Shown: positions 205 to 35,934, numbered from the stretch's first letter. The stretch: 64,000 nucleotides of DNA from Candidatus Electrothrix sp. GW3-4 (GCF_037902255.1 NZ_CP147990.1:674751-738750), one strand, 5' to 3'. Numbers and translations: made by a program. Notes: generated by a model from the letters alone, not told the origin.

Positions 205-531
205 ATGAAGGCACTCCGCACTCTGAAGCAGGTGCAGAATGGGCAGGTTCACCTGCATCTGCCCAAACAGTTCTGGGGACAGCAGGTTGAAATCATTGTG
301 CTCTCCGGGGCGCAGCAGGAAGGGGGTGAGGAGGCCGGAGCCTCTCTGCGCGGCTGTTTGCGGCAGTACGCGAATCCATCCCTGGCTGCGCAGGAAGAGG
401 GGGCTTGGGGCACTGCGGTGGAGGAAGCAGGATGGCGAGAACTGACTCCGTGCCGCTATGTCTCCTGCGTACCTTGCCGCGCTGCCCGTACCTGTGCCAA
501 TTCCTCGCGCCATTTCTCCAATAAAGGATAG
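205..531 (+). CDS. Small ORF; first ~40 aa resemble a SpoVT/AbrB-type (VapB-like) antitoxin fold (…QVQNGQVHLHLPKQFWGQQVEIIVL…). The C-terminal part is low-complexity and overlaps the convergent STAND gene.
   Basis: ORF track. Loose motif resemblance to VapB/MazE-type swapped-hairpin antitoxins. No PIN/toxin partner downstream. Confidence 0.2.
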   Translation: MKALRTLKQVQNGQVHLHLPKQFWGQQVEIIVLSGAQQEGGEEAGASLRGCLRQYANPSLAAQEEGAWGTAVEEAGWRELTPCRYVSCVPCRAARTCANSSRHFSNKG

Positions 532-2522
532 TCGATCCAATCTGCAATTTGCACAGCTACTGTAAGGTATTTCTCTGCTTGAACAAGGTTAAGTATATCT
601 TTATAGGTAAGCCCAATATTAAAGTATGTCACTGCTTCTCCGACCCTATCACCAGACTGCCGCCGTAGAACCAAGGCTTGTTCTAAATATTCCATGGCCT
701 TGTTATGATTTTCTTGAGAATGGTATATCGCAGCGATGTTGTTCAAGGTTTCTCCTGCTCCAATCTTGTCACCAGCCGCCCATCTGATAGGAAGAGCCTC
801 CTCTAAATATACCAAGGCTATCTCCCATTCATCTTGGTGCATATAAACGTTGGCAATATTATTCAAGGTCGTGCCTTCCCCTTCTTGACTACGGATTTCC
901 CGCCATATTTTTAGACTCTGCTTGAAATGGTGCAAGGCCAAGTCGTATCCTTCTTGAAGGGTGTGACTTTTTGCTATATTATTCAATGTTGCACCTTCTC
1001 CCTGCTTGTCACCTAACTCACGATATATTGGCAGGCTTTTCTCATACCATTCTAAGGCTTTCTTATGATCACCGCATCTCCCACAAGTGTACCCAAGACT
1101 GTTCAAGCACCAAGCTTCATCTCTACGACCGCCTATGTGTCGGGCAGCAGTTAAAGCTATTTTTAAGGCGATTTGTCGATCCACCCAATGTCCCTGCCTG
1201 TCTAAATACCTTGAGATTAAGTAAACAAAATCTGACACTTCATCCCACAGCTCATTATTTAGACAAGCCTCAAGGAAGCGCAAGTGGTGTCCCCGCTCAT
1301 CATTGGTGCAAACATATCCCTTTCTTCCGGGTAGCATATTAGAAACACAGAACCATTTATAATGGTCAGATAGCAATAGCAAGTTCTTCCTGCTCAAAGC
1401 CAGCTCAGTTCGGGCATAGGTATGCACCAACGCATGGCTTATCTGCCAGCGTTCCTCTTGCTTCTCCAGCAAACCATAATTAACCAGCTCACCCAACGCC
1501 TTCCGTGCCCGGCGTTCATCATCCTCAAGCACAGCCGCCACCGGTTCACGGGCTATCGGCGCAAAGGCCAAGGTACCTGCTACGCCCAGCGCAAGGCGGG
1601 CATCCTCGCTCACCTGCGCCACGCTACGCCGCAGCAGCAAGGCGGCATTCTCCTCCTGATGCGTACCGTCACCCAGTTCCTTGAACGGCTCTTTTTCCAA
1701 CCACTTCAAGTAATCTGCCGCGCTCTCACCCGTGCTGCTGAGATACCGGCCCGCAATGCGCAAACCCACGGGCCAGCCATCCAATATCTTGCAGATGCCC
1801 TGCACGCTTGCATCATCCGTCGTTGTAGGGGCACAGCGTGCTGTGCCCTTACTATGTAGCCGGAAGACCTCAGCTGCGGGCTGCTCCTCCAGCGGGGTCA
1901 GGTCAAGCCGGAAGCCCTGGGCATCGTCCCGCTTCCGACTGGTGATCAGCACCCCGCAGGTACTGCGCAGATCAAGCACGGCCTTGAGGTCATCCGCCTC
2001 CTCGGTTCCGTCCAAGATGATCAATGCCTTCCTGCCTGAGAGCACCTGCCGCACTGTGCTGGCAAGGCCCGTCTTTGCCTCCACCTGAAAGGCTACGCAA
2101 ATGGCTTGCAGGGCCTGCTCTGTTTGGGGATGTCCATAGAAGCTATGAAAGACTATGCCGTCCGGGAAGCGGGCTTTCTCCAGCTTATCCACTGCCTGCG
2201 CCGCCAAGGCTGACTTTCCCATGCCGCCCGGCCCGCACACAGCAACGACCTTGCCGGGTTGGAGCTGCTCCAATAAATCGGCAAGCTCCTTATCTCTGCC
2301 GAGGAAGCAGGCATCAAGGGGCTGGAGTTGACGGGGAATAACGGGCGGGGGAGTAGGCGGCGGCTGGTGATAATGAATGCCACCCTCCACATGGGCATGA
2401 TTGCCCAGCACACCAATTTGTGCATTCTGGGCATTTATCTGCTTACCGATAGCCTCATTCCCTTGGCCGATATTCTGCTCACCATCGCCACTGTGGTTGA
2501 AGGTATTGTCAGTCGTTCCCAT
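456..2522 (-). CDS. STAND NTPase of NB-ARC type with C-terminal TPR repeats and a short Q/N/G-rich N-terminal extension.
   Basis: Walker A GPGGMGKS, Walker B ALIILDG, then VLITSR (TTR-like) and GWPVGL (GxP-like) motifs. At least 5 TPR-like repeats (TLNNIAxxY…) in the C-terminal half. Start taken at ATG 2522 (MGTTDNTF…), which has AAGGA 11 nt upstream. The longer ORF start at 2624 is possible. Confidence 0.8.
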   Translation of the reverse strand: MGTTDNTFNHSGDGEQNIGQGNEAIGKQINAQNAQIGVLGNHAHVEGGIHYHQPPPTPPPVIPRQLQPLDACFLGRDKELADLLEQLQPGKVVAVCGPGGMGKSALAAQAVDKLEKARFPDGIVFHSFYGHPQTEQALQAICVAFQVEAKTGLASTVRQVLSGRKALIILDGTEEADDLKAVLDLRSTCGVLITSRKRDDAQGFRLDLTPLEEQPAAEVFRLHSKGTARCAPTTTDDASVQGICKILDGWPVGLRIAGRYLSSTGESAADYLKWLEKEPFKELGDGTHQEENAALLLRRSVAQVSEDARLALGVAGTLAFAPIAREPVAAVLEDDERRARKALGELVNYGLLEKQEERWQISHALVHTYARTELALSRKNLLLLSDHYKWFCVSNMLPGRKGYVCTNDERGHHLRFLEACLNNELWDEVSDFVYLISRYLDRQGHWVDRQIALKIALTAARHIGGRRDEAWCLNSLGYTCGRCGDHKKALEWYEKSLPIYRELGDKQGEGATLNNIAKSHTLQEGYDLALHHFKQSLKIWREIRSQEGEGTTLNNIANVYMHQDEWEIALVYLEEALPIRWAAGDKIGAGETLNNIAAIYHSQENHNKAMEYLEQALVLRRQSGDRVGEAVTYFNIGLTYKDILNLVQAEKYLTVAVQIADWIDYPLLEKWREELAQVRAARQGTQET

Positions 2523-2693
2523 AGATGATCTTGTTTCCTTTGATTGAGACCCCAGGTATCTTTTTATTATCCTAATCGTATAGTCTGTTTTATAAAAAAG
2601 GGCGAATGAAAAGGTTTTTTGCATCCTTGATGTGAATCAGGTAGAGTGATAGCCAGAACGGTTTCTTTGTCAAATTAACTGGACGTAATGTCA

Positions 2694-2848
2694 CTAACAC
2701 CTATGCAGCTTAACTACCCTACGCAGCTTCCCATCACCGACCGCAAGGACGAGATCGTCCAGGCCATTCAGGATAATCAGGTTATCGTTATTGCAGGCGA
2801 TACCGGCTCCGGCAAGACAACCCAGCTCCCCAAGATGTGCCTGGAATA
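2694..2848 (+). pseudogene. Diverged partial duplicate of the hrpA 5' end (MSLTPMQLNYPTQLPITDRKDEIVQAIQDNQVIVIAGDTGSGKTTQLPKMCLE) that breaks off after helicase motif I.
   Basis: About 90% nucleotide identity to 3790-3958 at the start of the intact hrpA. Homology ends abruptly at 2838/2839. Confidence 0.65.
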
Positions 2849-2985
2849 TATAACCAGCCTGGGGTAACACCTTGGGCCGGGGATATCTATACAGCTTGTC
2901 GCACAGACATCTTGACAATATGCATACCGAAAGATATCCTGAAGTATATTAATTATATCCTCAAAACTCAAAACAATACGACCTC

Positions 2986-3294
2986 ATGTTTAATCTGCAA
3001 CTGCAAGTCGATCCAAAAACGGAACAACGCCTGAAAGCAATTCTAGCGCATATGCAAAATGAAGAAACCTTTGCGCAAAACATCATTGCCTACCAAATTG
3101 CTGAACTTCAAAAAAGTCTGCTCAATATCCGGCTTGATTTAAAAGGCTTTGAAAATAAATATAAGCAGTCGAGTGAAAAATTCTACCGCCTGTATGAACA
3201 AGGACAGACCGATGACAGCGAAGATACGATGTTGTGGGCAGGTCTTTACGAAATGCTGCGTAATAATGAAGAGAGGCTGCGGGAACTCGCATGA
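2986..3294 (+). CDS. Hypothetical 102-aa protein, first gene of a 2-gene overlapping cassette.
   Basis: ORF track. Stop/start overlap ATGA with the next gene. Predicted helical/charged. No recognisable motif. Confidence 0.5.
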   Translation: MFNLQLQVDPKTEQRLKAILAHMQNEETFAQNIIAYQIAELQKSLLNIRLDLKGFENKYKQSSEKFYRLYEQGQTDDSEDTMLWAGLYEMLRNNEERLRELA

Positions 3295-3665
3295 TTGACC
3301 TCTACTTCCGGAATGTTGAACATATTATCCAGGAGTTTCCAAATATCCGCAGCTCCGCTCTCAAGAAAAAACAGTATAACGCCAAACAGGGATATATCAG
3401 CGGCTCTGTCCATTTTGACTCTGGAAGCCGTCTTGAGTTTATGGAACTCAAAGACACAGACAGATCAGCAAAGATAAAATATCGCTATCAGTATATGGAT
3501 CAACAGAATACCTGTCTCTTCCGATACGATAATGCACCACATCATCCCGAGATAACAACTCATCCTCACCATAAGCATAATGGGGAGGAGATTATCGCAA
3601 GTTGTGAGCCGACGTTATTTGATATTTTACTTGAGATTGCCGAACAAGAACGTGAAGACGAGTAG
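3291..3665 (+). CDS. Hypothetical 124-aa protein with a His-rich HHPEITTHPHHKH segment, second gene of the cassette.
   Basis: ORF track. Translational coupling to the upstream ORF. Family not recognised. Confidence 0.5.
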   Translation: MIDLYFRNVEHIIQEFPNIRSSALKKKQYNAKQGYISGSVHFDSGSRLEFMELKDTDRSAKIKYRYQYMDQQNTCLFRYDNAPHHPEITTHPHHKHNGEEIIASCEPTLFDILLEIAEQEREDE

Positions 3666-3757
3666 AGAAATCAGGGGGAAATCGCTCTTCTCAAAAGCCT
3701 CTCCTCTCACCCTCAGGTAAGTCCCCACCTTTGCATCCTCCCTGGTAATCGGGTAAA

Positions 3758-6700
3758 GTGGCAACCAGAAACGTTTTCCAAGAAAAACAATTGTGCGTAA
3801 CGCCACTAACACCTATGCAGCTCAACTACCCTACACAGCTCCCCATCACCGACCGCAAGGACGAGATCGTCCAGGCCGTTCGGGAACATCAGGTCATCGT
3901 TATTGCAGGCGATACCGGGTCCGGCAAGACAACCCAGCTCCCCAAGATGTGCCTGGAGGCAGGCCGGGCAGGGGAGGGGACCATGATCGGCTGTACCCAG
4001 CCCCGCCGTATTGCCGCCCTGTCAGTCACCGAGCGGGTGCAGGAGGAGCTGGGGCAGGTCCGGACGGTGGGGTCCAAGATTCGCTTTCAGGATCGCACCG
4101 GCCCGAAAACCCGGATCAAGTTCATGACCGACGGGATTCTTCTGGCCGAGACCCGGGGCGACCGCGATCTGCGGGCCTACGACACCCTGATCATTGACGA
4201 GGCCCATGAGCGCAGCCTGAACATCGACTTTCTGCTCGGCTATCTCCATCAATTGCTGGCCCGCCGTCAGGACCTCAAGCTGATCATTGCCTCGGCCACC
4301 ATTGATACCGAGAAATTCAGTAAGCATTTTCACGATGCCCCGATTATCCAGGTGGAAGGACGCACCTATCCGGTCACGGTGGAATACTGCCCCCCGGACA
4401 ACGATGACGATGAAAGCAATCAGGATATCGACCGGCTGGTTGCTGACCAGATTGTCAGGCTTATGGCGCGGCGCGGTGGGGATATCCTGGCCTTTCTCCC
4501 CACGGAACGGGACATCCTGGATACGGTGGCCTTGCTGCGTAAGGAGCTGGCTGACCGGGCCCTGATTCTGCCCCTGTTCGGACGGCTCCAGGGCGGGGAG
4601 CAGCGGCGTATTTTTCGTTCTGCGCAGCGGCGCAAGATCATTGTGGCCACCAATGTGGCAGAGACCTCCATCACTGTGCCGGGCATAGAATGCGTGGTGG
4701 ACACTGGCTTGGCGCGGATCGCCCATTATAATGTGCGGGCCGGGACCACCCATCTGCCCGTGACCAGGATTGCCAGGGCCAGTTGCGACCAGCGAGCCGG
4801 GCGTTGTGGTCGGGTAGGGCCAGGGCGTTGTATCCGCCTCTACAGCGAGGAGGATTATCTTGCCCGCGATGAGTTCACCCTGCCGGAGATCCAGCGTTCC
4901 AATCTGGCTGAGGTTATTCTCCAGATGCTCAGTCTTCGCCTGCCTGAGCCGCGCAATTTTCCCTTTATCGATCCGCCAGCACCCAGAGCGGTCAATGACG
5001 GCTTTCGTATTCTTCGGGAACTGGGGGCCCTTGACAGCGAGCACCAACTCACCGAGCGGGGCCGGATCATGGCTCGCCTGCCCCTGGACCCGCGCATCTC
5101 CCGGATGATTATCGAAGGCGCGGAACTGGGCGTGCTCCGGGAAACCACGATCATTGCCGCAGCCCTGGCTATTCAGGACCCCCGTGTCCAGCCGCCGGAT
5201 AAGCTGGAAAAGGCCCGGCAGGCCCACCGGGCCTTCAATTATCCCGGCTCGGATGTCATGACCCTGGTGAATATGTGGGATACCTGTCGAGGTGAAGCCC
5301 TGCCTTCGCCCGGTTCGTCTGATAAAGGGCAGAGTCGCCAGGATGATAAAGAGCAGACACGGGAAGCTGCCCCTACACCATCAGCCGGTCAGTTGCGCCG
5401 TTTTTGCGAGGCCAATTTCTGCTCCTGGCAGCGGATGCGGGAATGGTTTGATATTCATGAGCAGATCCTCCGTATCCTCAAGCAGCATAAGGAATTTGTC
5501 TCGGCCTTGGATCGTATGGCCGAATCGTCGTCTTTGCAGAATAATGTAGGGACACGGCATGCCGTGTCCCTACCGGAATCGCAGGATCGTAGGGGCGAAC
5601 CTTGTGATCGCCCGTTACGTTCCCCATCAAACCGTAGGGACGAACCCCTGTGTTCGCCCGGTTTATCTGATAAAGGGCAGACACGGGGATCTGCCCCTAC
5701 AGCACCAACCCTGGTTCATCAGGCCCTGACCGCAGGATTCCTGCGCAACATTGCCCTGCGCAAGGAAAAGAATACCTATCAGATCTCCGGCAACCGGGAG
5801 GCCATGCTCTTTCCCGGTTCCGGCCTGTATAATAAGGGGGGACAGTGGATCGTGGCAGCGGATTTTGTCCATACCTCGCAGCTCTTTGCCCGCATGGCCG
5901 CCACGATTGAGGTGGACTGGCTGGAACGCCTCGGCGGTGATCTCTGCAAACGCTCCTACTCGGACCCGCATTGGCAGAAAAAGTCCGGGCAGGTCATTGC
6001 CCTGGAAAAGGTCTCCCTGTTCGGTTTGGTGATTGCTGCGGATCGGCGGGTGAACTACGGGCGCATCAGCAAGAAAACAGCAGCGGAAGCCAAGGAGATT
6101 TTTATCCGGGAGGCTTTGATCCCCGGTGAACTCAAGGGCAAATATCCCTTTCTTGAGCATAATCTGGCCCTGGCTCGGCAACAGGAAGAGCTGGAGGAAC
6201 GCCTGCGTAGGCGCGGCATCATGACTGATGAGCAGGTTCTGTACGAGTTCTATGATCAGCGGCTGGAACTGGTGTATGACCGCTTCACCCTGAACCGCTT
6301 TTTGAGCAGGAAACGCAAGCAGGCCAAGCCCGGTGAAGAAGCGGACGGCTTTCTCAGGATGACAGAGGAAGATCTTTGCCAAAGCCAACCGGAAAGCGAT
6401 GAGCTGTATCGCTTTCCGAAAACCCTGACCACACCTCAAGGCGAGTTGCGTCTTTCGTATACCTTCCACCCTGGTCAGGATGACGACGGCGTGACTGTGG
6501 ATATCCCGGTCTCCTGCTGTCCGGCCCTGTCACCGAATCTCTTTGAGTGGCTGGTGCCCGGTCTGCTGGAGGACAAGGTGGCGGCCTTGCTCAAGGGGCT
6601 GCCCAAACGCCTGCGCAAGCTCTTTGTCCCTTTGCCGGACACGGCGGCCCTGCTCATGGACGGTATGGATCTCTACCAAGGTTCCCTGTACCCGGCCCTG

Positions 6701-7873
6701 GAGCGTTTTCTTCTCCGTCATTTTCAGGTCAGGGTGACACGGGCGGACTGGCAATTGGAGAATCTCCCCCTCCACCTGCGTATGCGTTTCCGTCTCTGCG
6801 ACGAGCAGGGAAAGGCTCTGTATTACACGCGTGATTTCCATAAGCTTGCTCTACATTGCGGTTCAATGCGGCAGACAATGCAGGGAGGGCAGATGCGGAA
6901 GGTCGAAGACCTGCCAGAAAGAAAGAATATCCAGGTATGGGATTTTGCCGTGGCTCCGCGCCCTCTGCCTGCACGGGACGAGCATAACCGGGTCACGGGC
7001 CTCTACTATCCGGCTTTGTTCCTGGGATTGAGCAAGGGGCAGGAGCAGCAGCTTTGCCTGAGGTATATTGCCGACCCTGAGCAGGCAGTTCGAGAGAACA
7101 GAAAGGGGCTTCGTTTCCTCTATGGGCAGTATTTCAGCAAGGAGTTTAAGGCGGTTGCCAAGGAATGCAAGGCAGCGGTGGCCGGGCATACCGCCTCCTG
7201 GCTCTCTCTTGGGATGAAGGCCGGGGCCGGAGAAACCAGGGACCTGTTGCTCAACTGTATTGTGGACAGCCTGTTTCAGATTAGCGGGGACCTACCGAAC
7301 AAGACTGGCTTTGAGCTGATCCTTGACGATCTCCGGGAGCAGGGAGTGACCCGACTGGCGAGGGAGCAGCTCAATCAGGTGCTGGATCTGCTGGCGGAAC
7401 GCCGCAAGACTCAGGTCGCCCTGACGCAAAGTAAACAACGGGCCGGGAAAAGTCGGAGTGCGGATCAGGCCCGCTTTGCCGAATATGAGGACTTACTTGA
7501 GAGACTGGTACCTGCGGATTTCCTTGATCGATTTTCTCCAGAAGAGGCCGGTGACCGAAAGCGGTACCTTCAGGCCCTGGCCAAGCGGGTAGAACGGGCC
7601 GAGCATAGTCCGCATAAGGATGCGGATAAGGTCAAGAGGGTTCAGCCCTTTGCTGAGCATCTCCGTCAGCTGGATCGGAAAGAGGCGGAGCAGAAAGCAG
7701 GCGGGAGCATTTCGGCTCCCTGCCGGGAGGCTGTGGTCCTGTATCGCCGCATGGTGGAGGAGTTCCGTATATCTGTCTTTGCCCCGGAAATCGGTACAGC
7801 CATGCCAGTCTCAGAAAAACGGCTGAAGCAGCAATGGAAGCTGGTGGAGGAGAGCTGCAGGAGGGTGGAATAA
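3758..7873 (+). CDS. hrpA: ATP-dependent RNA helicase HrpA (DEAH-box), carrying a low-complexity insertion.
   Basis: GDTGSGKTTQLP motif I, DEAHERS motif II, SAT, and the HA2/OB region. An alternative start at ATG 3815 (MQLNYP…) is possible. Residues ~515-650 are encoded by repeat-derived DNA (see the repeat feature). Confidence 0.9.
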   Translation: MATRNVFQEKQLCVTPLTPMQLNYPTQLPITDRKDEIVQAVREHQVIVIAGDTGSGKTTQLPKMCLEAGRAGEGTMIGCTQPRRIAALSVTERVQEELGQVRTVGSKIRFQDRTGPKTRIKFMTDGILLAETRGDRDLRAYDTLIIDEAHERSLNIDFLLGYLHQLLARRQDLKLIIASATIDTEKFSKHFHDAPIIQVEGRTYPVTVEYCPPDNDDDESNQDIDRLVADQIVRLMARRGGDILAFLPTERDILDTVALLRKELADRALILPLFGRLQGGEQRRIFRSAQRRKIIVATNVAETSITVPGIECVVDTGLARIAHYNVRAGTTHLPVTRIARASCDQRAGRCGRVGPGRCIRLYSEEDYLARDEFTLPEIQRSNLAEVILQMLSLRLPEPRNFPFIDPPAPRAVNDGFRILRELGALDSEHQLTERGRIMARLPLDPRISRMIIEGAELGVLRETTIIAAALAIQDPRVQPPDKLEKARQAHRAFNYPGSDVMTLVNMWDTCRGEALPSPGSSDKGQSRQDDKEQTREAAPTPSAGQLRRFCEANFCSWQRMREWFDIHEQILRILKQHKEFVSALDRMAESSSLQNNVGTRHAVSLPESQDRRGEPCDRPLRSPSNRRDEPLCSPGLSDKGQTRGSAPTAPTLVHQALTAGFLRNIALRKEKNTYQISGNREAMLFPGSGLYNKGGQWIVAADFVHTSQLFARMAATIEVDWLERLGGDLCKRSYSDPHWQKKSGQVIALEKVSLFGLVIAADRRVNYGRISKKTAAEAKEIFIREALIPGELKGKYPFLEHNLALARQQEELEERLRRRGIMTDEQVLYEFYDQRLELVYDRFTLNRFLSRKRKQAKPGEEADGFLRMTEEDLCQSQPESDELYRFPKTLTTPQGELRLSYTFHPGQDDDGVTVDIPVSCCPALSPNLFEWLVPGLLEDKVAALLKGLPKRLRKLFVPLPDTAALLMDGMDLYQGSLYPALERFLLRHFQVRVTRADWQLENLPLHLRMRFRLCDEQGKALYYTRDFHKLALHCGSMRQTMQGGQMRKVEDLPERKNIQVWDFAVAPRPLPARDEHNRVTGLYYPALFLGLSKGQEQQLCLRYIADPEQAVRENRKGLRFLYGQYFSKEFKAVAKECKAAVAGHTASWLSLGMKAGAGETRDLLLNCIVDSLFQISGDLPNKTGFELILDDLREQGVTRLAREQLNQVLDLLAERRKTQVALTQSKQRAGKSRSADQARFAEYEDLLERLVPADFLDRFSPEEAGDRKRYLQALAKRVERAEHSPHKDADKVKRVQPFAEHLRQLDRKEAEQKAGGSISAPCREAVVLYRRMVEEFRISVFAPEIGTAMPVSEKRLKQQWKLVEESCRRVE
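5547..5661. repeat. Three tandem REP-like palindromic units inside hrpA, translated in frame: 5547-5573 GTAGGGACACGGCATGCCGTGTCCCTAC (perfect 28-bp palindrome), 5589-5618, and 5634-5660.
   Basis: Palindromes read directly in the sequence. A related unit TGTAGGGGCGAATCCCTGTGTTCGTCC sits intergenically at 43925-43951. Confidence 0.65.
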
Positions 7874-7974
7874 TGGAAAGGAACGACCTGGTAAAACCAG
7901 ATAAAATCAGGAGGATCTATTAAACAGGTCGTTTGATAATGCGGAACCTTTGTACCAAAATAATATTGCTGATT

Positions 7975-8862
7975 TTACAAAAAACCTATTTTTAGCCTTT
8001 CTTTTGGCCATGCCCACGCTGTCAGATTGCTCATAAATGCTCCTGCAAAACACCCGCAATTTGAACAATCGGCATTATTCCCAAAGCATCGTCTCGTGTT
8101 CCATGAAGCATCAAAATGACGTGCCTCATCGCCCCAGTAACACCAGCCTCGATGGTCGGTTTTTTCATACCAGCTGATCATTGAATCATTCAGCAAAAAG
8201 TCGTTCGGATAGCGCGATTTCACTCTTCGAAGCTCCTGAAGAATCTCTCTACGGAGACTCTTTGCAGGAACTATGGGGTCGGTATCTTTGTCATCCCCGG
8301 TTTTAGACATGTAGATATTGCAGACAACGCCTGAAAAATTGTGTTCCTGAGAAGCCCGTACCAGCTGTTCAAGTTCAGTGTAATTTTGGCCGTTGACTGT
8401 CATATTGATGATGATCCGCTTATCACCGGAATAGTTTTTCAGAATTTTAGAAAAAACGCCTTGGCCTCGTATTTTGTCATTGGTTTTCTCGGTGCCCTCA
8501 ACAGATACATACAGAGGATGTTTGAATTCCAGAGGAATTTTTATAGTTCCATTTGTGATAATATACACAAAGGGGAAAATTTTATCCGCCAACATCAACA
8601 CATCTGGTCTTAACGCTGGTTCACCACCTACTAACAAAACGAGGCGAACTCCAGACTGATAGAGATCATGCAACCGTTCTTCCCATTGTGTTATAGGGGT
8701 AACCTCTTTTGAAAAATTTTTTTTCCCATAAAAATGATAACAATGCTCACACCTGAGATTACAGGCATCAGTGACATCAAACTCAGCCATAAACTTGGTT
8801 CCAAATACTTTCCGTTTCAGCTCAAAGAAGCCAAGTTGCGTTAACTTTATGAATTTATCCAC
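7975..8862 (-). CDS. Radical SAM enzyme with a C-terminal Cys-rich auxiliary-cluster (SPASM/twitch-like) region.
   Basis: CNLRCEHCY CxxxCxxC motif near the N-terminus. C-terminal CYWGDE…CFGNNADCSNCGCF. No precursor-peptide ORF found nearby. Confidence 0.8.
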   Translation of the reverse strand: MDKFIKLTQLGFFELKRKVFGTKFMAEFDVTDACNLRCEHCYHFYGKKNFSKEVTPITQWEERLHDLYQSGVRLVLLVGGEPALRPDVLMLADKIFPFVYIITNGTIKIPLEFKHPLYVSVEGTEKTNDKIRGQGVFSKILKNYSGDKRIIINMTVNGQNYTELEQLVRASQEHNFSGVVCNIYMSKTGDDKDTDPIVPAKSLRREILQELRRVKSRYPNDFLLNDSMISWYEKTDHRGWCYWGDEARHFDASWNTRRCFGNNADCSNCGCFAGAFMSNLTAWAWPKERLKIGFL

Positions 8863-9084
8863 TTTTATTTGGTTGTTTTATTGGTTACATTGATGACCAA
8901 GCTTCATGAGCATACCTGTTACTTTGCGTGTGCAGTGCGCGTTTGGTGCAAGCCGCTGCCCCTGTTGATAAAGGGGTGGCGAGTTCATCTCAATACCCGC
9001 ACCTTGTCAAAGGTATAGCTGACTTTTCGACTGATTTCAATTGAATTCATGTAACCTGTATTAACGTTTGACGGAGCAATTTCC

Positions 9085-9190
9085 GGTCTCGCTCTTTGCC
9101 CCGGAAATTGGCACGGCCATGCCTGTCTCTGAGAAACGGCTGAAGGAGCAATGGCAGCAGGTGGAGGAGAGTTGTCGGCGGGTGGAGTGA
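9085..9190 (+). pseudogene. Diverged duplicate of the hrpA 3' end, encoding …LFAPEIGTAMPVSEKRLKEQWQQVEESCRRVE*.
   Basis: About 85% nucleotide identity to 7770-7873. The differences are mostly synonymous. Confidence 0.65.
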
Positions 9191-9304
9191 GGTTGCCCGT
9201 TTGAAAAAAATATCCAGAAACGTGTAGATGTTGATTTGTTTTTTGAAGTATTCTGTTAGCTGCTGTTCAATCCGTCTATAATCTCATCAACGATTACATC
9301 CATC

Positions 9305-10455
9305 ATGATCAAAAAACTCGTTGTTTCCAATTTCCGCAGTCTTGGTCCTGACATTCATTTTGAACCGGGCAAGCTTTCTTTTTTATAGGACCGAACGGAT
9401 CAGGAAAGTCAAACATTCTTGATGTGCTCTCTTTTGTGAGGGATTCGGTTATGCAGGGCCTACCTGCCGCTATCACCCATAGACGTGGTATCGACAGTGT
9501 ACGGAGACGCAGTCATGGTCGTCCTTTTGATGTACACATAGAATTTCAGCTTCTTATTGATCAGCAGCATGTAACGTATGAATTTATTATTACCGGTGAT
9601 CGCCTCGAAGAGTATAGGGTAAAGACAGAAAAGGCGATTATGTACGGACCGAAGGGCGAGGAAAAGGTCTCATTTATCAGAAATGGTCATGAGTGGGATG
9701 GGCCGGAAGGAGTGGCGCCCTTTATGGATGAGCAATCCTTGGCCTTGACGGCACTGGGAGGAACAAAACAGTTCAAACCCTTGGTTGATTTTCTTTCAGG
9801 TCTAACCGTTTATTCTATTTTTCCGGATACCCTTCGGATTCCTCAGCGTTTTGATTCAAGCCATCCACTTAAAGAGCATGGAGAGAACTGGGTATCTATT
9901 TTACGGGAATTGGTGAAAGAAAAGTACGCCAAAGATGATATTGTTACAGGATTGAGGAAGCTCACCGGAGATATTGAGGATGTCCGAGTGGCGAGCGCAG
10001 CAGGATATCTGATAGCTGAGTTTAAGCAGCAGGTCAAAGGACAAAAGGCGAAACGTTGGTTTGACGCAGCTCAGCAGTCGGATGGAACGCTTAGGGTTGC
10101 AGGATTATTGACGGCCTTGGTGCAAACACCGGCTCTTCCGGTCATCGGTGTGGAGGAGCCAGAACTTACCGTTCATCCCGGAGCTCTGCCCATGCTCTAT
10201 GATTATCTGCGGCAGGCCAGCGAGATGTCGCAGGTCTTTGTTACTACGCATAGTCCGATAATCCTTGATGTTGTTGATGTTGAAAACGATGTTGTTTTTG
10301 TCGTCAATCGGGTGGATGGTAAAACAGATGTAAAAAGGATGGCGGATACCCAGCTGGAACCCGTTCGCAAGAGCTTGTTGCGATTAGGGGATCTCTTTAT
10401 GTCAGGTGACTTGCAACTTTCTCTTTTTGACGATGATACCCCCTGGAGGGAATGA
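9305..10455 (+). CDS. AAA family ATPase (OLD/ABC-like, AAA_21-type), interrupted by a -1 frameshift in a T6 homopolymer at 9379-9384.
   Basis: The frame from ATG 9305 gives MIKKLVVSNFRSLGPDIHFEPGKLSFL*. The adjacent frame continues …FFIGPNGSGKSNILD (Walker A) to 10455. One extra T would restore a single ~383-aa ORF. Confidence 0.75.
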
Positions 10456-11072
10456 TTGTGGCTGGCAAAAAGGGGTATCTGCTTGTGGAAGGACACGGGG
10501 AAGTGGAGGCTGCCCAGAATTTTATTACCCGCCTGAGTCACGATATCGGGATATACGACATTCCCTGGAGTAAACCCTTGCGTTGGACCAATCTGCATCA
10601 ATGGCAAGGGCATAAATCGGGAGGGGTAATGGCAGGTGCTGAATTTATTCGCACAAAGCCAGATGCTGGGGCATTGTTGATTCTTCGAGATGAGGATAAT
10701 CAATGTCCCAAGGAGCTTGCGCCGCAGATCGCAAGGCAATTGCGAATGCTTAAACTTCCCTTTCCAACGGCTTATGTGTTGTTGCATCCAGAATATGAAG
10801 TGCTCTTTCTTCCTTGTCTCGAGCAGATGGGGTTTCCGTCTTGGGACAGGGATTCGTGGGAGGCTCGGCGAGGAATTAAAGAATGGCTTTCCGGGAAGTT
10901 GCCCAAAGGACGTTCGTACAAGCCCACTGTGCAGCAGTTTGCTTTAACCCGGAAACTTGACTTCTCGATGCTGCGAGTAGCAGACGTGCCCTGTTTCGGT
11001 AGCTTGGAAAGAGGACTTCGGTTTCTATCAGATCACTCAGGCCAAACCGGTAAAGTATACCCGGTAGAGTGA
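10452..11072 (+). CDS. DUF4276-like protein (TOPRIM-like: LVEGHGE … LRDEDNQ), translationally coupled to the ATPase.
   Basis: ATGA overlap with the ATPase. N-terminal LVEGxxE motif and a downstream DxD-like acidic motif, typical of DUF4276/OLD-TOPRIM proteins. Identified from memory of the family. Confidence 0.6.
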   Translation: MIVAGKKGYLLVEGHGEVEAAQNFITRLSHDIGIYDIPWSKPLRWTNLHQWQGHKSGGVMAGAEFIRTKPDAGALLILRDEDNQCPKELAPQIARQLRMLKLPFPTAYVLLHPEYEVLFLPCLEQMGFPSWDRDSWEARRGIKEWLSGKLPKGRSYKPTVQQFALTRKLDFSMLRVADVPCFGSLERGLRFLSDHSGQTGKVYPVE

Positions 11073-11112
11073 GTCGTTCCCTACACTGCTCGCATAGTGT
11101 GTTTTAAACAAG

Positions 11113-11142
11113 CTGAAATGGCAATGGAAGCTGGTGAAGTGA
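11113..11142 (+). other. Short degraded remnant of the hrpA 3' end (CTGAAATGGCAATGGAAGCTGGTGAAGTGA).
   Basis: Matches hrpA 7829-7855 (…CTGAAGCAGCAATGGAAGCTGGTGGAGGAG…). Confidence 0.4.
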
Positions 11143-11196
11143 GGAATGTCTCCCTCGGTCCAGCTCTCCTATCCTGTGGGTGTTAGTGGGCGAATC

Positions 11197-11949
11197 TCAG
11201 ATACTTTCTATCGCGGCAAACTCCGGTTCATGAAGTGGGATGACATAATCCGCCATGTCCCGAACCTTAAGCATGAGGTCATAGGCGGCATAGGTATCGG
11301 TGCTGGTACCCGGCGGAATGACCTCCATCTCCATTGCCTTGACCTGTAACGGTGGCTCGAAGTTTTCTCGGATGACGCAAAAGCCGGTGATGGCGGTTTT
11401 ACCGCGTTCCGTGTCGATGAATACGGTCATGCCGCCCGGTGTATGGGCCGGGGTGTGCATCACTGAGATGCCTGGAAAAAGCTCCTGATCCGTGCTCACG
11501 GTTCTGATCTGTCCGGCCTCGCGGATTTCATAGATAAAGTCCTCCACATAGCGGTAATCCAGGGGGTGGGGATTATTGATGGTCTCCAGCTCTTTTTCGT
11601 GGATATAGAACACCGCATTACTACATTTATAATCGTTTTCGCAATGGTCAGTATGCAGATGGGTATGGATGACCACGTCAATATCTTCCGGTTTAAGTCC
11701 GTATCTCGCTAACCCCTCCTCAAGGGTGTAAATCTTCCCGCCGATGGCCTTTTCCCGGTCTTCGGAGATGACCGGATGCATTTCACCTGTGTCAATCAGG
11801 ATCTTTTTTTCACCACCTGCAATATACCAGCTGTAGATCGGGATGGTGTAAGGTGTGCCGTAGTCATACTGATAGGTCATCATGCCTTTGTCAAAGACCT
11901 TGGTGCCCACCACAATGGGGTGAATGGTATATTTGTTCATTGTGTTCAT
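11197..11949 (-). CDS. Metallo-beta-lactamase-fold hydrolase, AiiA-like N-acyl-homoserine lactonase type.
   Basis: HTHLHTDHCEN (HxHxDH) zinc motif. Length ~250 aa from MNTMNKY. Confidence 0.7.
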   Translation of the reverse strand: MNTMNKYTIHPIVVGTKVFDKGMMTYQYDYGTPYTIPIYSWYIAGGEKKILIDTGEMHPVISEDREKAIGGKIYTLEEGLARYGLKPEDIDVVIHTHLHTDHCENDYKCSNAVFYIHEKELETINNPHPLDYRYVEDFIYEIREAGQIRTVSTDQELFPGISVMHTPAHTPGGMTVFIDTERGKTAITGFCVIRENFEPPLQVKAMEMEVIPPGTSTDTYAAYDLMLKVRDMADYVIPLHEPEFAAIESI

Positions 11950-12137
11950 TTGGTTTGAAAGAATGGATTTGTAAGTTTGAGTGTCAAGCTTGATATAAAA
12001 AAGGATAAAAAGCAAGCGATTAACCGGAAGCGATCTCTTTTTTTGACTGGGGAGACTATGGGAAAAAGGGAGAACGTGGTATATTATTTGTCAGAAGTCT
12101 TCTTCTGATCGTCAACGTCTTCTCTTGAGGTGATATT

Positions 12138-12491
12138 ATGAAGATCGTTTTTGTCTATAATGCCGACAGCGGCAAGATCAATACGTTGCTTGATATTGGT
12201 CATAAGATCCTCCGTCCCGACAGCTATTCCTGCAACCTTTGCTCGTTGACCCATGGTGCTTTTAGTGAGAAAGAAGAGTGGCGGAAGTACCGGGAAGCGA
12301 GTCAACATGAGCTGGAATTTCTCCATAAGGATGAATTTGTGGAAAAGTATAGAGAGGACAAAGAATACACCTATCCTGTTATACTGAAGATGAGTGAGGG
12401 TGGGAAGAGCCTGGAGGTGTTGCTGGCGACAGAGGAAATTAATGCCCTGGCTGGCCTTGAAGAATTAGTGAGTAGGTTGCCCAAGAAATAA
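12138..12491 (+). CDS. Hypothetical 117-aa protein.
   Basis: ORF track. Followed by a terminator. Confidence 0.45.
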   Translation: MKIVFVYNADSGKINTLLDIGHKILRPDSYSCNLCSLTHGAFSEKEEWRKYREASQHELEFLHKDEFVEKYREDKEYTYPVILKMSEGGKSLEVLLATEEINALAGLEELVSRLPKK

Positions 12492-12550
12492 GAGGCTTCA
12501 GGGAAGAGAGCAGGAAGGAAAAACGCACCCTGCTGAGGAATGAAATTGAA

Positions 12551-12588
12551 CACCCGAGGGAGAGGAAACTTTCTCTCGGGTGTTTTTA
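12551..12588 (+). terminator. Rho-independent terminator: CACCCGAGGGAGAGG…TTTCTCTCGGGTG followed by TTTTTA.
   Basis: GC-rich hairpin plus a T-run after the 12138..12491 ORF. It also lies just downstream of the convergent acs gene. Confidence 0.6.
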
Positions 12589-12679
12589 TTCAAGGATGTT
12601 TTTGTAAAAATACCGGATGACTCCTTGGAGTCATCCGGCCAATTTTCATCCTTTGCTGGCCTTCCCCAGAGGGGTGGGG

Positions 12680-14662
<1,983 letters not shown>

Positions 14663-15180
14663 AATATTCTCTCCTTACAAAAACGAATTGTTGATTTATG
14701 GAGCTAAAAATACCATCGTGTCACTTTAAGAGCGATTAGTCAATAGTTTTACACGTCGAAAAGAGAAAGCTCTTTGTTTTTTTGGGCAAGAGAAAGATTG
14801 TACCCTTCTTTTGAAGGGTTGTTTTTGCTTTAATCCTTTTATTTTAATAGGTTGAGCTGTTTTTCTCTGGAATTTCTTGCGAGATTGCTCTCATCGGCTT
14901 GTAATAAAAACATTTTTTTATGTCAAAGGGATGAAAAAACCCGTTGGAGTCCATTTCCAAGGGAGAGGTAAGGTGGGGAAGGAGGTGACCCTGTTGTGCC
15001 CGAATGGGGTGGGAATGTTTTCAGGAGTGAAATAATAATGTCGCAGAGCTTTCCTTGATGTCGAGTTCTTTTCTTTTTTGTAGGCCCTATGGTGGCTATT
15101 GCCCTCTCGTGGGCTGAGTTTTTCTTTTGCTTCCTCGTTAATCCTTTGAAAGGATATGAGAAAACGTTGGTTGTTGCAAA

Positions 15181-15196
15181 TGGCATAGTCATTGCA
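15181..15196 (+). promoter_or_regulatory. Sigma-54 (-24/-12) promoter TGGCATAGTCATTGCA.
   Basis: GG-N10-GC spacing matches the TGGCAC-N5-TTGCW consensus. It lies 48 bp upstream of the nitrogenase-like gene start. Confidence 0.55.
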
Positions 15197-15243
15197 TTTA
15201 GCTTTAGTGGTGATATCAACTATCCAATAATCTGAGGAGCATC

Positions 15244-16611
15244 ATGGAAGCAGTCGCTTTAAAAGAACGGGAAAATCAGATTCATGTCAAGGGGGAGGCC
15301 CCTTTTAATATTGTCTGCAATAAGGACAGTCTGGCAGGAGCGGTCAGTCAGCGGGCCTGCGTGTTTTGTGGTTCACGAGTTGTCTTGTACCCCATTGCTG
15401 ATGCCCTGCATCTGGTGCATGGTCCCATCGGCTGCGCTGTCTATACCTGGGATATCCGTGGCGCCCTGTCTTCCGGTCCGGAATTGCATCGCCTTTCTTT
15501 TTCCACCGATCTCCAGGAGATCGATGTTATCTTTGGCGGGGAAAAGAAACTGCGTCGGGCCTTGATGGAGCTCATTGCGCGTCACCAGCCCAAGGCGGCC
15601 TTTGTTTATTCCACCTGTATTGTCGGTATTATTGGTGATGACCTTGAGGCAGTCTGTAAAAGTGTGACCGCTGAAACCGGTGTTACTGTGATTCCTGTAC
15701 AGTCGGAAGGCTTTAAGGGGAATAAGCGGGCAGGGTATCAGGCAGCCTGTGATGCCATGTTCCGGCTTATCGGGACCGGAGAAACGGAGGGGATCTCTAA
15801 ATATTCTCTCAATATCCTGGGGGACTTTAATCTCGCTGGCGAGATCTGGATGATTCGTGAATATTATGAAAAGATGGGTATCGAGGTGGTGGCCAATATC
15901 ACTGGCGATGGTCGTGTGGGCGATATTCGGCGGGCCCATGGTGCCGCTCTGAATGTAGTGCAGTGTTCCGGTTCAACTATGCAGCTGGCTAATATGATGG
16001 AAGATAAATATGGGGCTCCTTCCTTGCGGGTATCCTATTTTGGCATTGAGGACATGTCCGAGGCCCTGTACGATATTGCTCGATTCTTCCAGGAAAAATA
16101 TCCCGATGATCCTGAATCCGATCGAATCATGGAGCGGACCAAGGCCCTGGTCCAGGAAAAGGTGGGTGAGCTGGTCCCGAAATTAGAGAAATACCGCAAG
16201 GCCCTGGCCGGGAAAAAGGCTGCTATCTATGTAGGGGGCTCGTTCAAGGCCTTTTCTCTGGTCAAGGCCTTTCGCCTGGTGGATATGGATGTAGTTATGG
16301 TGGGCTCTCAGACCGGTACTGAAGAGGATTATCGGGAGCTGGAGGCCATTACAGATCCAGGCACGGTTATTGTCGATGATGCTAACCCCTTGGAGCTGAA
16401 TAGCTTTTTGAAGGAAAAAGGCGTTGATATCTTTGTCGGCGGAGTCAAGGAACGACCCATTGCCTATAAATTGGGCATTGGTTTCTGTGATCATAATCAT
16501 GAGCGTAAGGAGGCCTTGGCTGGCTTTGAGGGCATGCTCAACTTTGCCAAGGAGGTCTATTCCTCGGTGATGAGTCCGGTCTGGCGCTTTGTCCCCAGGA
16601 ATCAGGCCTGA
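15244..16611 (+). CDS. Nitrogenase component-1-type oxidoreductase family protein (NifE/NifD-like). Orphan gene.
   Basis: 455 aa. Conserved Cys/His region VFCGSRVVLYPIADALHLVHGPIGCA typical of NifD/E/K/N-fold proteins. No nifH/nifK/nifN neighbours. Confidence 0.65.
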   Translation: MEAVALKERENQIHVKGEAPFNIVCNKDSLAGAVSQRACVFCGSRVVLYPIADALHLVHGPIGCAVYTWDIRGALSSGPELHRLSFSTDLQEIDVIFGGEKKLRRALMELIARHQPKAAFVYSTCIVGIIGDDLEAVCKSVTAETGVTVIPVQSEGFKGNKRAGYQAACDAMFRLIGTGETEGISKYSLNILGDFNLAGEIWMIREYYEKMGIEVVANITGDGRVGDIRRAHGAALNVVQCSGSTMQLANMMEDKYGAPSLRVSYFGIEDMSEALYDIARFFQEKYPDDPESDRIMERTKALVQEKVGELVPKLEKYRKALAGKKAAIYVGGSFKAFSLVKAFRLVDMDVVMVGSQTGTEEDYRELEAITDPGTVIVDDANPLELNSFLKEKGVDIFVGGVKERPIAYKLGIGFCDHNHERKEALAGFEGMLNFAKEVYSSVMSPVWRFVPRNQA

Positions 16612-17115
16612 TATTTTATCTGGTAAATCTTTCGTCTTTTCTCTTTTATTTAGAAACGTTTTTGTTGGTTCTGATGCGTTTGGCCAACAGCTATACTGGC
16701 CGAACGCATGAGTCTGTATTTCCCTCGCTCCTTTTATCTCACCTTGTTTTTTTCTGTGTCCTCTCTGTCGTCATCCTGCCATTAAGGGGGGATCCTTTGA
16801 GGATGTACTTGATTGTGCTCTCTTCTTCTCTTTTTTCGTCTGACCTTTTTGAACTCCTCAATATTGCAAGAGAAGGGTGGGGGAAGAGAGGGGAACGATT
16901 CTGTGCGTTTTGGAATTCATAGTTGCATTTTCGTATAATGTGTAGTTAGTTCGGTCAGGTTGATTTATTACGTTATTATACTCGAAACATGTGAGTAACG
17001 TGCTTTTTCTGTTTGCAGAGAGCAGAAAAATATCATCTTGAGTGAGTTAGAGTTCTATCGAAGGTGACGGAGCGTTTTTCCGTACTTCGAGTCTAAGTAT
17101 AAGAAAGAGGAACGA

Positions 17116-18303: not shown

Positions 18304-18321
18304 TTGTGTCCTTTTATCACG

Positions 18322-18801
18322 ATGAGAAGCAAGGCTCGAGCGTTCGCTCTTCAGCATCACGGAGAACAGAGGTACGGGGAGCATCCCTATGTTGTCCATC
18401 TTGATGCTGTGGCTGAGCTCGTGCAACAATACGGTGAGACAGCGGTTGTCATTGCCTATCTCCACGATGTTATCGAGGATACCGATGTCAGTATTCGCGA
18501 GCTTGAGGAGGTATTCGGGCCCTTGGTTGCCGATTGTGTCACTGTCCTCACTGATGAGCCTGGAAAGGATCGTCAGGAGCGCAAGGAGAAAACCTACCGC
18601 AAGATGGCTCAAATTAATGGGGCAACAGAGATCGCCTTGGTAGTCAAGGCCGCAGATAGGCTTGCTAATATGCGTGCCTGCCTTACGGGAAGAAAAGAGA
18701 GACTCTTGGCCGTCTATAAGGATGAGCATCCGGTCTTTACAAAGGCCGTGTTCAGGCCAGGGCTCTGTGACGAAATCTGGTCTGAATTTGCTGAATTATA
18801 A
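18322..18801 (+). CDS. HD-domain protein (RelA/SpoT-type small hydrolase-like).
   Basis: H…HD…D pattern (HHGEQRYGEHPY…YLHDVIEDT). Start taken at ATG 18322. Confidence 0.6.
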   Translation: MRSKARAFALQHHGEQRYGEHPYVVHLDAVAELVQQYGETAVVIAYLHDVIEDTDVSIRELEEVFGPLVADCVTVLTDEPGKDRQERKEKTYRKMAQINGATEIALVVKAADRLANMRACLTGRKERLLAVYKDEHPVFTKAVFRPGLCDEIWSEFAEL

Positions 18802-18852
18802 CCTGTTATCCCGTGTGGTTTGCTGCCTCCTGAATGCAGAGGGAGGGCGTGG

Positions 18853-19890: not shown

Positions 19891-20229
19891 GAATCTCACA
19901 GAGCATACCGCTTAATTCTCTGGAACTTTCATGTCATGGGTTGCTGGTGCCCCATTGCCCCTTTCTGGATGATCCCTCCAGGATGACTCCTTGATTTTTT
20001 TACAATAAAAAGAAGAGATCTGTGAATAGATGTCGACAGATATCCGAGGTATGATTATTTTTTACTCTATATATATGAAAGTGGTCAGCGTGTTGCCCGC
20101 CATTTTTATTTTTTGTTATCCTGGCCCGCTGGACCGGGATAGGAGTTTAGAAGAGAAGAAAAAGGTGTCTGGCCCCGAAGGGGGAGTTTGCACAGAACAT
20201 GCCGTTAATCGAACCAGCAGGAACAGGGC

Positions 20230-24287: not shown

Positions 24288-24302
24288 TATCATCGCTGCC
24301 GA

Positions 24303-35870: not shown

Positions 35871-35934
35871 CTGTGACTGAAGGCTGCTTGATCAGGTCGA
35901 TGGAACGGGAACTAAGAAAAGAAAGGAAAATAAA

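Follow-up and report, generated by a model that had tools for sequence, protein, structure and literature searches.

Foreign termini of the helicase gene hrpA bracket toxin-antitoxin and candidate defense cassettes on both sides of the gene in a cable bacterium

Introduction

Integrative elements that carry a replacement terminus for the gene into which they insert are well known, and include e14 and phage 21 in icd, SXT/R391 in the 5′-end of prfC and the dusA-specific islands; such elements carry an integrase gene of their own, and their recombination takes place at a fixed core. Arrays of displaced rhs C-termini and of type VI effector-immunity genes have instead been attributed to homology-facilitated illegitimate recombination (Jackson et al., 2009; Kirchberger et al., 2017, PMC5361080), and restriction-modification units have been found inserted without mobility genes by insertion with long target duplication (Nobusato et al., 2000; Furuta et al., 2010, PMC2853133). 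Here we analyze a 64-kb stretch (the window, to which all coordinates refer) of the cable bacterium Candidatus Electrothrix sp. GW3-4, in which the DEAH-box RNA helicase gene hrpA is flanked on both sides by diverged copies of its own ends. Between these copies and the intact gene lie a TumA/TumE toxin-antitoxin cassette (TumAE), a radical SAM gene and the candidate defense system HEC-01, and a STAND NTPase gene adjoins the copy of the 5′-end. With moderate confidence we favor homology-anchored terminal displacement, rather than a dedicated integrase, as the best model for how this arrangement arose.

The hrpA locus resembles the rhs and type VI arrays in that a conserved part of the gene appears to serve as anchor while a new terminus and downstream genes enter and the old ones shift outward, in the orphan termini left behind, and in the absence of an integrase. 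It differs from them in that the anchor is a housekeeping RNA helicase gene and not a polymorphic toxin, in that the displaced termini are short non-functional relics and the cargo is of toxin-antitoxin and anti-phage type, and in that both ends of the gene are used, the 5′-end together with a promoter copy. Compared against the features of insertion with long target duplication (inserts of <20 kb, direct repeats of >30 bp and of variable length), the locus shares the defense genes, the lack of a mobility gene, the long and variable direct repeats, the single copy in empty genomes and, often, the position at the 3′-end of a gene. The published repeats are mostly near-identical (417/423 and 388/397 positions, and in one case 384/412, 93%) and have been read as the recipient's own target (PMC2853133), whereas the hrpA copies are 78–92% identical with a ratio of non-synonymous to synonymous substitution rates (dN/dS) of 0.06–0.22, and the insertions are serial and two-sided. 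Since the copies are this diverged while dN/dS is near 0.1, one copy of a pair must be derived from a donor. Transformation, in turn, can make duplications by interchromatid pairing (PMC3784515).

Like the elements in icd, prfC and dusA, the inserts at hrpA supply a diverged, largely synonymous end of the target gene, keep the gene intact and leave the resident end at the far side; unlike those elements they consist of one or two genes, carry no recombinase and have variable junctions. The serial, promoter-proximal addition of small cassettes, with older ones pushed distally, recalls integron arrays, including clusters of attC sites that have no integrase, but IntI is absent, no attC-like imperfect palindromes mark the cassette borders, the cassettes at hrpA have their own promoters and lie in both orientations, and what separates them are relics of gene termini. 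A transposon or insertion sequence was rejected, as there are no terminal inverted repeats and the only transposase of the window lies 33 kb away.

A sequence-only reading of this DNA knew of no described mechanism that targets both ends of hrpA. A mechanism without precedent is not supported, as both integrase-free displacement and insertion with long target duplication have been described (PMC5361080, PMC2853133). What is new with respect to these precedents is the occurrence of foreign termini, two-sided arrays and a toxin-antitoxin and defense cargo at a housekeeping helicase gene in cable bacteria. Our search of the literature on hrpA as a defense-island hotspot, or on the defense systems of cable bacteria, returned nothing relevant. 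The locus addresses the open question of how defense islands grow at hotspots in which there is neither integrase nor transposase.

Results

Copies of both ends of hrpA

The 5′ repeat pairs 2618-2845 with 3730-3957 at an offset of 1112 nt; identity is 85.6% over the full 228 nt and rises to 91% within 2672-2845 (self-BLAST E=1e-68); the copy that had been proposed at 2680-2838 is real but longer. The repeat runs from a promoter-like element through the 5′ untranslated region and the start codon (ATG at 3815, and at 2703 in the copy) to coding base +143, where it ends directly past the P-loop codons. At its start is a conserved element, TTTGCATCCTCCC..GGAATCGGGTARAGTGG, that is made up of TTGCAT (3731-3736), a 17-nt spacer and TAAAGT (3754-3759). 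It matches 7 of the 12 sigma-70 consensus positions and was not listed by our promoter scan, and since the fit is limited to those 7 positions, it is from its conservation that we infer a sigma-70-like promoter of hrpA. The element is present in the related loci L001, L005, L007, L008, L139 and L155, while the DNA on its left varies between genomes. In the upstream copy of the window, and in L001, L005 and L139, this is the STAND gene; in the inner copy of the window and in L155 it is the TumAE cassette; in L007 a tyrosinase-like gene, in L008 a transposase-like open reading frame (ORF), and in L080 and L111 VapBC and HigA.

Orthologues of the STAND gene lie upstream of hrpA in L001, L005 and L139 and are missing in L007, L008, L080 and L155. 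In the window, the displaced 5′-end is contiguous with the STAND gene, as in the relatives. The ATG of STAND (2624-2622) falls within the TTGCAT hexamer of the displaced promoter-like element, so that the repeat seems to begin at this start codon. From the displaced 5′-end the reading frame continues into cassette DNA up to a stop codon at 2865-2867, leaving a 54-aa remnant.

Downstream of hrpA, 9055-9190 (fragment 2) matches 7738-7873, which refines the limits of a copy previously placed at 9085-9190; its high-identity core, 9093-9186 against 7776-7869, is 86% identical (E=1e-24). The leftmost 34 nt (9055-9088) are only 55% identical to hrpA and contain a stop codon that breaks the frame. A further extension to 8990, hinted at by tblastn, was dropped because the in-register identity left of 9055 is that of background. 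Both copies are closed exactly by the stop codon, which is TAA in intact hrpA and TGA in fragment 2. A third copy (fragment 3), at 11112-11139, matches 7822-7849 in 24 of 28 bases with a local alignment score of 20, as compared with 8.4 ± 1.4 in 2000 shuffles, none of which reached it, and the short remnant that had been suspected at 11113-11142 is thereby borne out. Fragment 3 is followed by GTGAGG, as found after other hrpA stop codons, with an apparent internal deletion of 21 nt ahead of it, and it occupies the site at which L005 has a 78-nt hrpA fragment behind the same HEC-01 cassette. Its 'WKLV' signature is that of the present intact end, whereas fragment 2 is of type 'WQQVE'. The search for further hrpA fragments in the 64-kb window found none beyond these three repeat sets, which are the only dispersed repeats of such kind in the window.

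The features of the locus are as follows.

456-2624, minus strand: STAND NTPase gene (NB-ARC and TPR); Pfam NB-ARC, TPR_12 and others
2618-2845, plus strand: displaced hrpA 5′-end, in register with 3730-3957; holds the promoter-like element (2619-2647), 5′ untranslated region, ATG 2703 and 143 coding bases
2846-3729, plus strand: TumA/TumE toxin-antitoxin cassette (PADLOC candidate PDC-M44); GC content 42%
2986-3294, plus strand: tumA-like gene; NCBIfam TumA match below cut-off; PADLOC PDC-M44A/B
3291-3665, plus strand: tumE; Pfam TumE, 87 bits; NCBIfam TumE match below cut-off; PADLOC PDC-M44A/B
3730-3814, plus strand: promoter-like element and 5′ untranslated region of intact hrpA, kept in relatives
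3815-7873, plus strand: intact hrpA, DEAH-box helicase, 1352 aa from ATG 3815; Pfam DEAD, Helicase_C, HA2, OB_NTP_bind and DUF3418
7738-7873, plus strand: present hrpA 3′ terminus, type 'WKLVE', stop codon TAA; partner copy of the displaced 3′ fragments
7874-9054, minus strand: radical SAM cassette; GC content 41%
7975-8862, minus strand: radical SAM gene (271-aa version from 8790); Pfam Radical_SAM
9055-9190, plus strand: displaced hrpA 3′-end no. 2 (fragment 2), type 'WQQVE', stop codon TGA; matches 7738-7873
9191-11082, plus strand: HEC-01 candidate defense cassette (PADLOC), with an 80-nt leader common to L005
9305-10455, plus strand: HEC-01 AAA_21 ATPase gene, frameshifted; PADLOC HEC-01A, 257 bits
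10452-11072, plus strand: HEC-01 DUF4276 partner; PADLOC HEC-01B, 81.5 bits
11112-11145, plus strand: displaced hrpA 3′-end no. 3 (fragment 3), about 30 nt, type 'WKLV'; matches 7822-7849
11197-12015, minus strand: metallo-beta-lactamase-fold (lactonase-like) gene; Pfam Lactamase_B; all NCBIfam lactonase families below cut-off
12680-14662, minus strand: acetyl-CoA synthetase gene (acs), from the gene scan

The families were assigned with Pfam, PADLOC and NCBIfam on all ORFs in 1-14.7 kb and on ORFs of at least 90 aa elsewhere in the window. The gene content agrees with what had been read from the sequence (STAND, a two-gene TumA/TumE cassette, radical SAM, and an ATPase with DUF4276), except that the ATPase gene is frameshifted. 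The same reading had counted four bracketed cassettes, which is one too many: three are bracketed, and the STAND gene only adjoins the 5′ fragment. The cassettes have a GC content of 41–47%, as compared with 58.6% for hrpA and 50.4% for the whole window. The longest ORF of hrpA starts from a GTG at 3758, but alignment with relatives makes the ATG at 3815 the likelier start. By promoter scan the TumAE cassette has a promoter-like site of its own at 2912-2940, and by terminator scan a hairpin lies at 7886-7902 between the convergent hrpA and radical SAM genes. The locus of E. marina (L008) is otherwise colinear but has no metallo-beta-lactamase-fold gene, the region skipping from window 11082 to 12091; this gene is probably either the oldest downstream neighbor or a further cassette.

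An exact GCTGGTGG, the Chi octamer of E. coli, is present at 7840-7847 in the 3′ repeat of intact hrpA, and fragments 2 and 3 are one base off each. We set GCTGGTGG aside as a recombination signal, since it is absent from the hrpA ends of relatives and the octamer is that of E. coli and may not be the one of this clade.

The copies are foreign termini

The displaced fragments are foreign (xenologous) hrpA termini from other hrpA lineages and not local duplicates, because the changes are mostly synonymous, fragment 2 resembles the hrpA of another species more closely than its own gene, and the stop codons differ. Of the differences in the window, 12 are synonymous and 4 non-synonymous in the 3′ pair (dN/dS 0.06), as against 5 and 4 in the 5′ pair (dN/dS 0.22), in keeping with the largely synonymous substitutions that had been noticed at the outset. 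The 840-nt repeat of L012, a locus from another member of the Desulfobulbaceae, has 52 synonymous and 18 non-synonymous differences (dN/dS 0.097), and the ORF of its fragment is still open. Fragment 2 (core 9089-9190) shares 95% identity with the E. marina hrpA end and 93% with the displaced fragment of L005, as against 86% with its own gene.

Logan assemblies built from two further sequencing runs match the window with 100% identity at 2816-3871 (L152), 5549-13393 (L153) and 5549-10300 (L154), and together these three contigs span all junctions. As independent assemblies thus cross every junction, an assembly artifact is excluded. A local tandem duplication with subsequent decay, or a chimera of assembly or binning, is accordingly an explanation to which we give almost no credence. 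In its favor, the direct repeats are near one another and the genome was probably derived from a metagenome, but a dN/dS far below 1, a fragment that is nearer to the hrpA of another species, differing stop codons and different genes between the repeats all speak against it, and L155, which comes from another metagenome, has the same architecture. In dismissing a local tandem duplication, the sequence-only reading was therefore right.

Termini are linked to cassettes and join at variable positions

The segment of the window with fragment 2, the 80-nt leader and HEC-01 (9089-11074) is colinear with L005 13922-15904, where the intact hrpA end is followed by the same leader and HEC-01, while the right flank of HEC-01 differs between the two. 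This colinearity together with the differing right flank indicates that a terminus moves together with the cassette that lies outward of it, away from the gene body, and that the resident terminus is pushed outward, which, along with the foreign origin of the termini, supports the serial displacement by replacement termini that had been envisaged. The outer edge of the fragments is fixed, at the stop codon or at the promoter-like element, and the inner edge is variable. Inner ends lie at -840, -136, -98, -78 and about -57 for 3′ fragments and at +118, +133 and +143 for 5′ fragments; the repeats are 228, 136, 78, 840, 98 and 117 nt long, and across loci the displaced fragments range from about 50 to 840 nt. 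No shared core sequence or common motif was found at the inner junctions. Together with about 30–45 nt of a downstream flank like that of L008, HEC-01 meets hrpA at position -78 in L005 and at a position of about -57 in the window, which implies two separate joins. The junction in L005 falls on 7 nt, ATGCCGG, that the donor-like flank of L008 has in common with hrpA.

Between the window and L155, the cassette and promoter copy (2848-3845) are colinear and 96–100% identical, the coding sequence of hrpA past 3845 is 78–88% identical and the displaced 5′ fragment 87–92%. As the cassette is near-identical but the flanks have diverged, the hrpA repeats appear to serve also as homology arms for later exchange of cassettes.

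The hrpA gene itself is a mosaic. In sliding windows its identity to single relatives switches between 71–78% and 91–98% in blocks of a few hundred bases, for instance from 96–98% at 4029-4400 to 71–77% at 6858-7370 against L005, and from 73–78% at 6333-6700 to 91–98% at 6708-7220 against L001. For 7446-7873 no relative is more than 89% identical. In the repeat pair of L012 the differences are spread evenly along the copies, and there is no close relative with which chimerism could be compared. Within the coding region of the window hrpA we also observed internal direct repeats (5294-5386 and 5642-5710, 86–88% identical) and a perfect palindrome with 12-bp stems at 5546-5573; the segment 5520-5690 is indel-variable among relatives, and short-read contigs end at 5549.

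Empty sites, alternative cassettes and further displaced ends in relatives

Electrothrix genomes have 84–87% protein identity to the HrpA of the window. Comparison with relatives, which the sequence-only reading had proposed as a check, revealed both empty sites and alternative cassettes (Upx, HEC-01, HigBA and SWIM/MoxR). At the 5′-end, STAND adjoins hrpA without TumAE in L001, L005 and L139. At the 3′-end, hrpA is followed directly by HEC-01 in L005, without the radical SAM gene, and by pntAB-like genes in L001. The hrpA ends are single-copy at sites lacking the given insert in L001, L005, L007, L008 and L139. The full order in L005 is hrpA, HEC-01, the 78-nt hrpA 3′ fragment, a 290-aa ORF, a second copy of HEC-01 and clpB. 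In L012 the 840-nt hrpA 3′ repeat, 92% identical, surrounds one gene, the anti-phage gene Upx (1751 bits). L155 contains three hrpA 5′ copies, arranged as promoter to +118, HigBA, -5 to +133, TumAE, and promoter with intact hrpA; its HigBA, at 8482-10663, lies between two 5′ copies with a repeat of 117 nt (88% identical), and downstream of hrpA are SWIM, DUF5691 and MoxR genes. The inserts, with TumAE, radical SAM, HEC-01 or Upx as contents, measure 0.9–3.9 kb and have no mobility genes.

Beyond these relatives, hrpA 3′ copies occur in a distant lineage with 49% HrpA identity (L136), at 13465-13671, 15223-15319 and 17629-17778. Two unknown genes and a ParE-containing segment lie between these three copies, and a SIR2-HerA system follows; the HerA of this region (13465-22809) is split in two ORFs, 19778-21049 and 21403-22809. 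Among the fetched loci with at least 2 kb of flank, a duplicated hrpA C-terminus was found in 4/90, three of these four in the clade of the cable bacteria, and a duplicated N-terminus in 2/108. A search of E. coli genomes with the hrpA end of an enterobacterial metagenome-assembled genome gave no match, the query being too divergent.

The same footprint is found at another gene in Candidatus Electronema sp. JC (L004). Here the last ~107 coding nt, the stop codon and the terminator hairpin of a por/nifJ-like gene of 813 aa are duplicated, and the two copies (2389-2554 and 6539-6699, ~98% identical in the coding part) bracket about 4 kb with MazEF- and VapBC-like pairs.

Two side observations concern the 5′ flank of hrpA in other loci. 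In L080 (2593-3161) and L111 (1249-1820), a lone HigA-like gene lies between the promoter element and the hrpA start, with no coding duplication. In L012, 61 nt at 5473-5533, ~4.5 kb upstream of hrpA, match 10444-10504 (coding positions ~+510 to +570) with 84% identity. This match may represent either one more relic of hrpA or a helicase motif conserved in a paralogue.

Search for mobility functions

No tyrosine or serine recombinase was found in the 64-kb window by Pfam, PADLOC and NCBIfam scans. As had been stated before, the island contains no integrase or transposase, and the rest of the window has no integrase either; the sole mobility gene is an IS110 transposase (44638-45609, minus strand), the one 33 kb away. 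No recombinase was found beside the repeats in L005, L012, L136 and L155. The three window cassettes showed neither terminal inverted repeats nor a shared border motif nor attC-like inverted repeats at their borders, and no tRNA was found. Searches of viral contigs for hrpA C-terminal fragments and for relatives of HEC-01A and the radical SAM protein were negative, the search for hrpA ends covering 2.9 million contigs; there is thus no evidence for a phage-borne, attP-like hrpA end.

Discussion

We suggest the following course of events. DNA of another Electrothrix lineage would enter the cell with an hrpA end and the cassette that adjoins hrpA in the donor. The hrpA part would pair with the resident gene and recombine homologously, as an anchor, and the far end, which has no homology, would be joined illegitimately inside the resident hrpA terminus, sometimes at a microhomology of a few bases. 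The outcome would be an intact hrpA with the donor terminus, followed by the new cassette, the truncated resident terminus and the older neighbors, and repeated rounds would build an array with the oldest fragment outermost. The repeats, their foreign origin, the linkage of termini to cassettes, the variable inner junctions, the mosaic gene and the lack of a recombinase in the window are observed, whereas we infer in what order the events took place, which recombination enzymes acted and how the DNA entered.

For the window, the starting state would have been STAND, hrpA, the metallo-beta-lactamase-fold gene and acs. HEC-01 would have arrived with an hrpA 3′-end like that of E. marina, leaving fragment 3, and the radical SAM gene would have come after HEC-01, with the present 3′-end, leaving fragment 2. 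The arrival of TumAE with its own promoter copy and 5′-end would have left the 5′ fragment beside STAND, either before or after the 3′ events. Once a cassette is flanked by hrpA repeats, these may act as homology arms for exchange between lineages, and it is plausible that an established repeat-flanked cassette spreads by purely homologous routes, through a circle and a single crossover or through interchromatid pairing.

Several observations weigh against this model, and some of them are what one would expect of site-specific integration. In the latter case small elements, or their remains, with an attP that includes a replacement hrpA terminus would be inserted by a tyrosine or serine recombinase that is encoded elsewhere or has since been deleted. 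The geometry fits, with a foreign terminus beside the cargo and a displaced resident terminus. The inner junctions are not spread over the 4-kb gene but cluster near the P-loop codons (+118 to +143) and the EEFRVSxFA codons (-50 to -136), which could reflect a site preference; the left junction of TumAE differs between the window and L155, two lineages, by just a 10-nt indel; the HEC-01 core (9272-11082) has the same limits in four contexts; and displaced hrpA 3′-ends recur in the distant L136. Homology-anchored displacement leaves this clustering, the constant limits, the near-identical junctions and the reuse of hrpA unexplained, and for these reasons a site-preferring or enzyme-assisted process stays in play as a minority view. 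Moreover, the scan for recombinases reached 64 kb of the genome only, donor and recipient pairs are lacking for most junctions, and the ATGCCGG microhomology is a single case, taken from a diverged alignment of the donor-like flank. The only hint of a mediator of DNA uptake or recombination in the window is dprA (24303-25454), and competence of cable bacteria is not established; we know of no genetic system for these organisms.

On the other hand, site-specific integration has to contend with repeats of ~50–840 nt that share no common core at the inner edge, with the lack of a recombinase in the island, in the window and beside the repeats of four other loci, with an insert in L012 that is a single gene and has no space for a decayed element, with the failure to find a single hrpA-end fragment in the viral contigs, and with the same footprint at the por-like gene of L004. 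We find this explanation doubtful. The original proposal, in which a dedicated mechanism or discrete integrating elements target hrpA, is likewise not supported, in view of the variable inner ends without a core, the absence of terminal inverted repeats and of a tRNA, the mosaic hrpA, the microhomology and the por footprint.

Another explanation is a cycle that depends on RecA. The hrpA repeats would recombine to release a circle of one repeat and the cassette, which would be transferred and re-inserted at an hrpA end by a Campbell-type crossover, or else a linear repeat-cassette-repeat molecule would enter by interchromatid pairing, with an illegitimate join only at founding. For restriction-modification units whose flanks are long repeats, a virus-like cycle of this kind has been put forward (PMC2853133), experiments have demonstrated interchromatid integration for donor DNA that is partly repeated (PMC3784515), and between the window and L155 the cassette and promoter copy are near-identical while both flanking repeats have diverged, with architecture and junction kept. 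However, the hrpA fragment behind HEC-01 in L005 differs in type and length from the one in the window, which requires separate founding joins, and the junction-side part of the displaced 5′ fragment is not donor-like (92%), contrary to the simple Campbell prediction. Repeats of 78–92% identity are also poor substrates for RecA. Such a cycle thus appears unlikely to us, and we favor homology-anchored terminal displacement with an illegitimate join for each acquisition.

If that model is true, a homologous anchor and an illegitimate join suffice to stack cassettes on both sides of a housekeeping gene, and the leftover repeats become portable homology arms. The hrpA loci keep scars of each acquisition (the foreign terminus, the cassette and the truncated resident terminus), from which the order, the donors and the type of junction are readable in the sequence. 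As a search rule, diverged and mostly synonymous copies of core-gene ends, a few kb from the gene, should mark recent cassettes and candidate defense genes in uncultured bacteria. We can also imagine, though we think it quite improbable, that the cable bacteria (Electrothrix, Electronema) have a hitherto undescribed, lineage-enriched process for the capture of integrase-less defense and toxin-antitoxin cassettes, with the termini of conserved genes, namely both hrpA ends and the por 3′-end, as preferred attachment regions, giving integron-like arrays separated by relics of gene termini. Such capture might depend on a trans-acting enzyme, or on the genome organization of the filament or cells, rather than on generic illegitimate recombination.

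Cassette genes and other regions of the window

The frameshift in the HEC-01 ATPase gene is located at a T-run near 9385, ahead of the Walker A motif, so that the N-terminus (MIKKLVVSNF...) is in another frame than the sequence from Walker A onward. The frameshift is shared by the independent assembly L153, and the ATPase gene of the window is therefore probably a real pseudogene; intact HEC-01 copies are found in L005.

We considered whether the radical SAM protein is a viperin and rejected this, as it scores 38.9 bits against a cut-off of 180 for NCBIfam viperin_w_prok and only the region of the CxxxCxxC core aligns; the PADLOC match to pVip is limited to residues 28-107. The protein is below every NCBIfam cut-off, so that no named NCBIfam family fits, and among solved structures its sole match is the generic core of SkfB. 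In an exact-sequence look-up the 295-aa ORF had no match and the 271-aa version was matched. Its family, of ~294 aa and 58–62% identity, occurs mainly in archaea (Bathyarchaeota, Altiarchaeota, Aenigmarchaeota and Halobacteriota) and in Thermodesulfovibrionales, and the bacterial copy beside hrpA looks like an inter-domain transfer.

Elsewhere in the window, dnaG, rpoD and dprA stand in a row in the region 20230-27380, followed by two tandem PilJ-domain paralogues (25538-27380, 79% identical). A second accessory region, at 34273-45849, comprises a Fic-domain gene, a 3′-5′ exonuclease, a type I restriction-modification system (hsdR at 36947-39805, a 23S-rRNA-IVP-like gene, hsdS, and hsdM at 42422-43921) and the IS110-family transposase. 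It contains repeats of 30 nt (35841-35870 and 45820-45849, 97%) and of 69 nt (42135-42203 and 42315-42382).

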